DNA of 64,000 nt from an uncultured delta proteobacterium (GTDB lineage: Bacteria > Myxococcota_A > Polyangia > Polyangiales > Houyiibacteriaceae), in assembly GCA_963699755.1 (NCBI GenBank), contig CAVOVB010000006.1, positions 89,081 through 153,080 on the forward strand, in the 5' to 3' direction. Shown here one piece after another: positions 61,993 to 64,000 of the stretch; the stretch's first letter is position 1, and the number at the start of each line of letters is the position of its first letter. The position numbers and the translations under genes were made by a program. Below the pieces are notes generated by a model. It saw only the letters and a list, made by a program, of their open reading frames with translations, ran no database searches and was not told the DNA's origin.

Positions 61993-63185
<1,193 letters not shown>

Positions 63186-63336
63186 TGCTTAAGTTCCTCC
63201 CAGAAGTACATGTTGGTGCCGCCGATCGTGACCTTGCTCACGCGCGGCCTTACGTGCCGGTCAAAGCTCTTCCGACTGAGACGCAGATATGCCCGAGCTT
63301 CGGCCGGGGTTGCAAGGGGAGACGTGAAAGTATCTG

Positions 63337-63486
63337 TCATGTTTCAGGTTGCGGAAGGCGTTCGGACCAACGGAGCGCGAAATCGGAGCGAAACCGTTCG
63401 CCGTTGCGACGCCGAGAGCGCCAGGACGTCGCTCGTGCCTTGAGCCCGCGAGGAGCCGTACGCTCCGAGCAACTCATTTGGCTCAC
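63337..63486 (-). CDS. Small basic ORF (49 aa) translationally coupled to xis
   Basis: SD AAGGAG (63501-63496), GTG 63486, and a TGA overlapping the xis ATG (ATGA). Confidence 0.4.
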   Translation of the reverse strand: MSQMSCSERTAPRGLKARATSWRSRRRNGERFRSDFALRWSERLPQPET

Positions 63487-63723
63487 GACCGATGTCTCCT
63501 TCCCACAACCCTATTATCGGTTTTGCCCCCCGAAATGTTGTCCTGCGGCTCGAAAAACCTAGTGAAGGCGCCAAAACGACAAAGGATATCGAGAATCGGC
63601 GCGTTGCGACTAGCCTCCCATGCGGACGGAGCAAGCCCAGGCGCACCCTGGTTGGAACGGACCGAAGGGCATGCGTGATCACGATGCTCCGAAATCCGCA
63701 TGCGACGGCGCGCGGGGGTTCGG

Positions 63724-63934
63724 GCAGGCCGTGTGCCGCACCATCTGCAACGGCATGCGGCACTCGAATCCGGCCCGGACCTGCCACACGGTGAAGCCGT
63801 TGCGGACCTGTCTGGAGGACGCCATCCGTTGCTTGCCGAGCGTGGCAAATATGTGGCAGCAAACCGTGATTGACTTGGCCAAAGCCAGCGAAAACTGCAC
63901 AACCCAGAGAGCAAAGAGGGCTGAAAATGCGTAG
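63724..63934 (+). pseudogene. Decayed C-terminal fragment of a second tyrosine integrase
   Basis: AGRVPHHLQR then, after a frameshift, MRHSNPART..LEDAIRCLPSVANMWQ, resembling integrase box II; catalytic Tyr absent. Confidence 0.5.
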
Positions 63935-63954
63935 CGCGAAGCGCAGCATCAGAT

Positions 63955-64000
63955 GCCTCTCACGCCGGTAACGCGAGTTCGAACCTCGCTGGGGTCACCA
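63955..64000 (+). other. 3' half of tRNA-Glu(CTC), att core-like fragment
   Basis: GC-CTCTCAC-GCCGG-TAAC-GCGAG-TTCGAAC-CTCGC-TGGGGTC-ACCA. Anticodon loop, T-arm, 3' acceptor strand and CCA are present; the D-arm and 5' acceptor strand are absent. Confidence 0.88.

Follow-up and report, generated by a model that had tools for sequence, protein, structure and literature searches.

The window, by which we mean the whole 64-kb stretch of DNA that was analysed, forms the end of contig C6 in an assembly of 11 contigs with 9% contamination (C1–C11, together designated G000; other G numbers denote the genomes compared and L numbers the loci). The contig terminates at position 64000, which is the CCA of a tRNA-Glu(CTC) fragment. 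Sediment metagenomes made up most of the sequencing runs that contained the stretch, and the closest integrase was encoded in records assigned to Myxococcales and Polyangiaceae. The features at the end of the window are as follows:

61993..62067, plus strand: tRNA-Val(GAC), the left end (attL) of an island, with a 44-nt copy of its 3′ half on C11
62004..63185, minus strand: the tRNA-Val element's tyrosine integrase, 393 aa and intact (PF00589, E 1.8e-14)
62999..63340, minus strand: likely excisionase of 113 aa (weak HTH_17 match, E 0.11; paralogues)
63509..63545, plus strand: conserved motif, likely an origin of transfer (13 genome copies; position)
63546..63814, plus strand: non-coding shared segment that contains HLQR/MRHSNP (copies behind other integrases ~75–82% alike)
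63815..63934, plus strand: last 39 codons (333–371) of an otherwise deleted tyrosine integrase gene whose product targets tRNA-Glu(CTC); they also form the left (P) arm (assigned from relatives)
63842..63858, plus strand: GTGGCA-N5-GTGGCA, a predicted arm-type integrase site (the opposite arm has the mirror counterpart GTGGCA-N5-GTGTCA)
63955..64000, plus strand: 46-nt 3′ half of tRNA-Glu(CTC), an att core running from the anticodon loop to CCA (match to the host gene)

A tRNA 3′ end is the exact stop of 4 of the 11 contigs (ends of C5, C6, C10 and C11), as would be expected if integration sites varied within the population. Elsewhere in the assembly, C7 was collinear with C1:1583460–1951988 at ~82% identity and duplicated a tRNA cluster, which points to a second species in the bin. 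We also observed 5′ halves of tRNA-Arg, a rarer configuration, bounding islands in L120 (G020:C6), in L100 (G060:C6) and at C1:510751–510791.

The core matched the host tRNA-Glu(CTC) gene at 46 of 46 positions, the matching 3′ stretch of that gene being C3 463877–463922. It begins at tRNA position 31, 2 nt ahead of the anticodon loop, and lies 1,888 nt after tRNA-Val, so that the tRNA-Glu 3′ half of the original prediction, placed ~1.9 kb from tRNA-Val, was confirmed in sequence and in position. A family of serine-recombinase units, to which we return below, also targets the last 11 nt of this core. The GTGGCA direct repeat that had been predicted at 63842 and 63853 was likewise present. The 17-nt repeat motif had one occurrence in the window, where shuffled sequence gave an expectation of 0.01 (for a pattern chosen after the site had been seen), and three in the genome, always beside a Glu core; the GTGGCA pair was not among the 20 largest repeat families of a repeat search.

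Upstream of the core, a frameshifted integrase C-terminus had been proposed, of which a remnant was indeed found. In a search of 55 genomes of the genus, residues 63–104 of a 104-aa ORF matched the ends of long open frames in two genomes, one of which encodes a 371-aa tyrosine integrase in full (PF00589, E 3.8e-12). In L047 and L080 this intact integrase ends 20 nt short of the core; its end is identical to the window stub at 28 of 41 residues, and DNA identity to its locus is 85% over 63815–63999. Similarity of the window to this protein begins at codon 333, and its PF00589 domain comprises residues 176–329, so that the tail kept in the stub lies outside the domain. A Pfam scan of seven ORFs in 63344–63949 returned a single chance-level match (E 0.052), a six-frame genome search found no match to PF00589 in the same interval, and the integrase profile expected in 63600–63934 did not appear. 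Searching a protein collection with the 104-aa ORF gave 13 candidates among longer proteins, none of them at E 0.01, which is weak evidence. From the motif order of the family, we take the catalytic tyrosine of the 371-aa integrase to be Tyr324. With codons 333–371 all that is left, this predicted residue is lost, and the junction thus has no working integrase in cis. By this alignment the integrase gene is cut by a fusion at codon 333, without a frameshift. What survived of the earlier reading is therefore a 39-codon remnant at 63815–63934; the frameshift and the claimed length did not, and HLQR/MRHSNP proved to be non-coding.

That segment, 63546–63814, has no codon pattern (variability over its 270 nt was 0.133/0.133/0.140 by frame position) and no reading frame conserved among its copies, which is why HLQR/MRHSNP is not a frameshifted C-terminus and why we rejected the segment as a decayed integrase or other gene. 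A structured RNA or single-strand signal was also considered and found no support: there was no Rfam family, the fold had a z score of −1.76, the covariation term was unfavourable and 4 of 56 pairs were changed on both sides. Three of four metagenome runs covered the integrase, excisionase and motif and left 63548–63778 uncovered, where missing cover does not equal absence. The neighbouring motif at 63509–63545 recurs at 12 other sites in the genome and accompanies most of its integrases and relaxase operons. On C11, as in relatives, it lies between the traK-like and traJ/relaxase genes, and a comparison of loci showed that sequences swap partner at this motif. Judging from its position, the motif is likely to be a shared transfer origin and, likewise, an exchange point of integrase heads and bodies.

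The tRNA-Val end of the locus belongs to an island of its own. The frame of the Val integrase terminates within the antisense strand of tRNA-Val (62004–62067), so that its C-terminus would differ between the integrated and the excised state. Paralogues of the 113-aa ORF precede four other integrases of the same genome, which makes an excisionase the likely assignment. The second tRNA-Val 3′ copy that the original prediction had called for lies at C11 73667–73624, 44 nt long and 20 kb from the right end of that contig. In three relatives with an empty site tRNA-Val is joined directly to thrS, and here thrS is on C11; the ends of C6 and C11 thus appear to flank one island, and the host order peptidase–tRNA-Val…thrS is preserved across the site. 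Read in reverse from its right end, C11 begins with 48 nt of a serine-type end, the 11-nt core of the Glu 3′ end and the second arm that L088 also has (described below), and continues with cargo, a relaxase (PF03432, E 3.6e-25), a NikA-like gene (E 2.6e-6), a second copy of the motif, a traK-like gene, a truncated traL-like gene and then the 44-nt Val copy. The tra names are putative; the underlying profile matches are to DUF5338 and CbiA. No mating-pore genes were found in the subset of C11 ORFs that was scanned. The island thus has its own integrase and flanking att repeats, with its two ends on two contigs, together with a relaxase and accessory genes on C11 whose link to C6 we infer, and these are properties that an integrative mobilizable element would have. 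Within our strain no read or contig bridges the window end to C11. A homologous body, 83% alike across the transfer genes and 77% across the arm and a further 600 nt, is found behind a different integrase in G023:C6, where stub, core and arm are contiguous. A related tRNA-Val element in G015, with an integrase 71% alike, had no Glu half within the 40 kb examined.

The missing continuation of the core can be read in other loci. L088, an independent contig of 2,164 nt that is 93% identical to the window end, contains in unbroken order tRNA-Val, integrase, excisionase, motif, stub, core and second arm. The two are a mosaic in their similarity, with ~96–97% identity over the Val integrase adjoining tRNA-Val, 76% over the middle segment and 87% over the stub. 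The second arm directly follows the core in L081, L089 and L034 as well, and directly follows a full tRNA-Glu in L087, L133 and L138; in our strain it is on C11, with a gap between core and arm. Both repeat-bearing arms flank the core in L088, L081, L089 and G023:C6. GTGGCA-N5-GTGTCA was present in 18 of 26 second-arm-like sequences (a set that includes loose false matches), with nine different spacers, and we predict that the GTGGCA pairs on both arms are arm-type sites of the integrase. A core starting at position 31, a cognate integrase encoded next to this arm and core where the element is intact, and a second arm are what an anticodon-loop attP comprises. Because L088 runs directly into the second arm, we read the layout as an integrase-less attP-type junction and not as a chimera or a chromosomal hybrid: on this comparative evidence, stub-arm, core and second arm form such a junction inside a relaxase-carrying tRNA-Val island.

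The stub-core unit is not peculiar to this island. A pattern scan of metagenomes yielded 18 loci, which with the window and six genome loci make 25 arm-core loci, some of them near-duplicates; viral contigs gave no match to the arm-core pattern. Since the metagenome pattern demands the arm repeat, retention of the arm is partly a matter of ascertainment. The integrase is intact in two of the 25 loci, and two others run off a contig edge; in the remaining 21 it is truncated, at ~10 breakpoints that range from codon 265 to codon 333, with 20 of these 21 loci broken within 300–333. The codon-333 junction occurs in five loci: the window and L088 behind a Val integrase head, L083 behind a Leu(TAA) head, L086 behind another integrase, and L081 behind an unassigned head. 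A sibling junction at codon 326 occurs in three loci, in one of them behind a fourth integrase. The codon-333 loci differ in their downstream partners (a serine recombinase in L086) and carry both host core alleles, two having allele A and three allele B. These alleles, both of which exist among host genes, differ by three changes that include a compensated T-stem pair, and finding both behind one junction suggests to us that the core recombined once the junction existed.

We also counted Glu halves in 14 well-assembled genomes, which were selected for few contigs and, being related, are not independent samples. Extra Glu halves accounted for 16 of 30 pattern matches, in 7 of the 14 genomes; two lay in a tRNA-Glu array, ten in regions anchored elsewhere, two probably so, and two were ambiguous. 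They occurred in islands bounded by Asn, Arg(CCG) and Leu genes and beside a further integrase family, and halves from at least four other arm families recurred in non-Glu islands. The full arm was kept in 7 of 7 genome halves of the window's arm family, and its partial form was found in none of the 28 genome halves examined (of 34 fragments). A 5.9-kb Asn island contains one Glu half followed by one serine-type end.

Such ends belong to the second family of elements, which targets the last 11 nt of tRNA-Glu and had 98 end junctions in 12 of the 14 genomes, with none for a reversed control pattern in all 14. In relatives, genes for large serine recombinases (with Resolvase, Recombinase and zinc-ribbon domains) run directly into full tRNA-Glu, the gene end overlapping the short target repeat. 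They also run directly into Glu halves that are not tRNA genes, in L030, L086, L096, L098 and L105, and a 516-codon frame reads into the Glu half of a Leu-bounded region, which fits the earlier suggestion that the att core may still be usable in trans. In our own assembly there was no serine-recombinase match and no intact Glu integrase (best other match 36%). A conserved 25-residue peptide is encoded on the antisense strand of the far ends, in one and the same frame. This frame was open in 78 of 80 distinct junctions and the remaining antisense frames in 28 and 3, while one sense frame was also open in 75 of 80 and the third-position excess was slight. The serine recombinase gene would accordingly seem to be split by its own att site, as the integrase genes of Mx8 and SSV are (PMC4383910). 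The first 48 nt of C11 are a far end of this type, from which a unit in the assembly gap would follow. Elements of this serine type often come after the Glu halves of Asn, Arg and Leu islands. Many Glu halves had no serine-type junction within the DNA examined, and a serine-type array in G005:C3 sits behind tRNA-Gly fragments and has no Glu half.

At tRNA-Glu(CTC) itself, in our strain (C3:463847–482653, L002) and in relatives, we observed arrays of up to ~16 short units in an integron-like tandem, most of them without a recombinase and each ending in the same 70-nt junction; a terminator-like hairpin begins 52 of 85 distinct left ends of the units. One unit (L002:3383–3912) resembles, by its sequence, a putative small toxin–antitoxin pair of ParE/RelE type, and a tRNA-Pro-like gene or fragment is present inside units at L030:5732–5806 and L084:8598–8631. 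In L128 (G061:C10:238924–242694) a serine-type end junction lies 3.7 kb after tRNA-Glu(TTC), and the serine family may thus use another Glu isoacceptor too.

Taken together, we think it probable that the tRNA-Val island carries an integrase-less tRNA-Glu(CTC) attachment junction that acts as a portable secondary integration site, or landing pad, and reuse of this passenger att site by incoming elements is likely. The island would be an integrative mobilizable element with its far part at the right end of C11. Glu-specific elements, using their own or a trans-acting recombinase, would land on the 46-nt half: those with a tyrosine integrase at the anticodon loop, where landing would rebuild P-core-P′ and swap the core allele, and those with a serine recombinase at the 3′ end of the half. 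At least one serine-type unit probably lies between core and second arm in our strain, and its presence there would explain why the assembly breaks at the CCA. On excising at tRNA-Val and being mobilised, the island would take captured cargo with it. Several observations weigh against this reading: the unbridged gap before C11, an assembly with neither a serine-recombinase match nor an intact Glu integrase, the Val element of G015 and the G005:C3 array that have no Glu half, and the many halves with no serine-type junction in the DNA examined. So do the ends of other tRNAs in the Lys island of this genome, described below, and 11 Glu-array loci, none of which had a foreign attP-plus-integrase head, the trace to be expected of whole-element integration at tRNA-Glu.

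The same junction could have arisen by a module swap, in which a tRNA-Glu element gained a Val head, lost its integrase and kept its attP, so that the circle could use tRNA-Glu as a second site with an integrase in trans. The four loci with repeat-bearing arms on both sides of the core, the relaxase-element gene order after the second arm on C11 and the module exchange described among such elements (PMC5704250) are all what this history predicts. We nevertheless regard it as unlikely. None of the 11 Glu-array loci held a reciprocal product; the traK-like gene of the C11 body, compared with its counterpart in the intact Glu element, is just 56% alike over 50 residues, and it precedes the traL-like gene and not xis-int; and a serine-type end stands between core and second arm in our strain. 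One junction, moreover, has varying core alleles and downstream partners, and with the stub-core unit behind Val, Leu(TAA) and a third head and both alleles present, repeated landing fits at least as well as a swap. The original prediction of a change from tRNA-Glu to tRNA-Val with a retained dead int-attP was thus right about the stub and, given the arm in L088, about the attP-type junction, and too narrow in making it a one-off event. A hybrid of Val and Glu islands formed by deletion or rearrangement of the chromosome, or a chimeric assembly join, had been offered as the other possibility, and a contig that ends exactly at the core, in a bin with 9% contamination and one contig ~82% identical to another, gave some reason to suspect it. 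We now consider it extremely improbable and largely refuted, by the identical layout in L088, by a contig from the unrelated run X1 that bridges 63586–63960 with two other letters and a 7-nt gap (its integrase differs from that of the window at 16 of 1,349 letters), by the intact synteny at tRNA-Val, and by tRNA-Glu with its own array intact on C3.

A neutral scar is a different matter, since it grants the junction and denies it a role: segments would be shuffled through shared transfer-origin or cargo sequence, att junctions carried along by accident, and later landing would be incidental. Foreign tRNA fragments do occur elsewhere in this genome, a 55-kb tRNA-Lys(CTT) island (C1:408923–464645) containing the ends of tRNA-Arg(CCG), tmRNA and tRNA-Met, and the mosaic identity to L088, the Val element of G015 that has no Glu half and the G005:C3 array that has no Glu head all agree with shuffling of this sort. 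Yet deletions of ~10 origins end just short of the arm repeat, the 28 genome halves include no partial arm, and halves from several other arm families recur in non-Glu islands, so that we hold an accidental origin to be decidedly unlikely. Going further than the landing-pad reading, one may ask whether mobilizable islands of the genus are selected to carry the exported tRNA-Glu half as a gene-capture platform. Such a tRNA-based counterpart of the mobile integron would harvest recombinase-less cassettes of the chromosomal array by way of a large serine recombinase acting in trans, and would spread them by conjugation from other chromosomal sites. We raise this as a tentative, rather doubtful possibility; the likeness to integrons is functional only, the enzyme that goes with the repeated junctions here being a large serine recombinase.

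Several known systems, as the cited work describes them, resemble parts of the landing-pad arrangement. It is established that elements accrete on leftover att sites and that modules are exchanged (PMC5704250, PMC7168690). In the cis-mobilizable elements of Streptococcus (ICESt/CIME) the integrase is lost, the att site is kept and incoming elements integrate there (PMC5704250); a leftover att without an integrase, as found here, and the exchange of integration modules between elements are shared, but CIME tandems share one target gene, whereas here the Glu junction lies inside a tRNA-Val island and tRNA-Glu is on C3. A leftover att inside an element that is integrated elsewhere would move with that element. 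The ssrA islands of Dehalococcoides are tandem arrays formed at one tRNA-like target by a large serine recombinase (PMC3146451), and they are similar in having a motif just upstream of a short repeat, the repeat inside the recombinase gene and many units without an integration module; those arrays are at a chromosomal gene, in contrast to the junctions found here also on exported tRNA-Glu halves in other islands. Class A of Islander (PMC4383910) likewise has a 3′ fragment from anticodon loop to CCA beside a tyrosine integrase, whereas the fragment described here does not mark the distal boundary of an island at its cognate tRNA and lacks a functional integrase in cis; the method pairs a tDNA with its own fragment, and non-cognate fragments fall outside it.

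A single element with att sites for two or more chromosomal targets is also known from Mesorhizobium, in its tripartite ICEs (PMC5882170), but these have three working integrases with excisionases and an element split over the chromosome; in the present case the second integrase has been deleted and the chromosome shows no rearrangement. Tycheposons (bioRxiv 10.1101/2020.12.28.424599) resemble our islands in their scattered partial tRNAs and fragmented integrases, which are interpreted there as older integrations at the island's own tRNA, and differ also in having no relaxase modules. Integrase exchange has been reported in pipolins, and target sublocations have been treated in a Klebsiella survey. 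We found no description of a non-cognate tRNA half inside a mobilizable island being reused as a target in the literature searched, the scope of which was outside subscription journals. Island accretion itself is thus known, and accretion on a non-cognate tRNA half inside a mobile island would be a new variation.

If this interpretation is right, an integration hot spot can itself become mobile, as a tRNA fragment in islands at other genes. A carried fragment would open extra docking sites and give array cargo a second vehicle on which to leave; islands of this kind would be overlooked or wrongly delimited by methods that match each tRNA to its own fragment. The loci also provide two recombination systems with mapped ends from an uncultured lineage of marine sediment, both open to testing: the 371-aa tyrosine integrase, together with its two arms, and the large serine recombinase, which has a short 3′-end core and a gene apparently split by its own att site.
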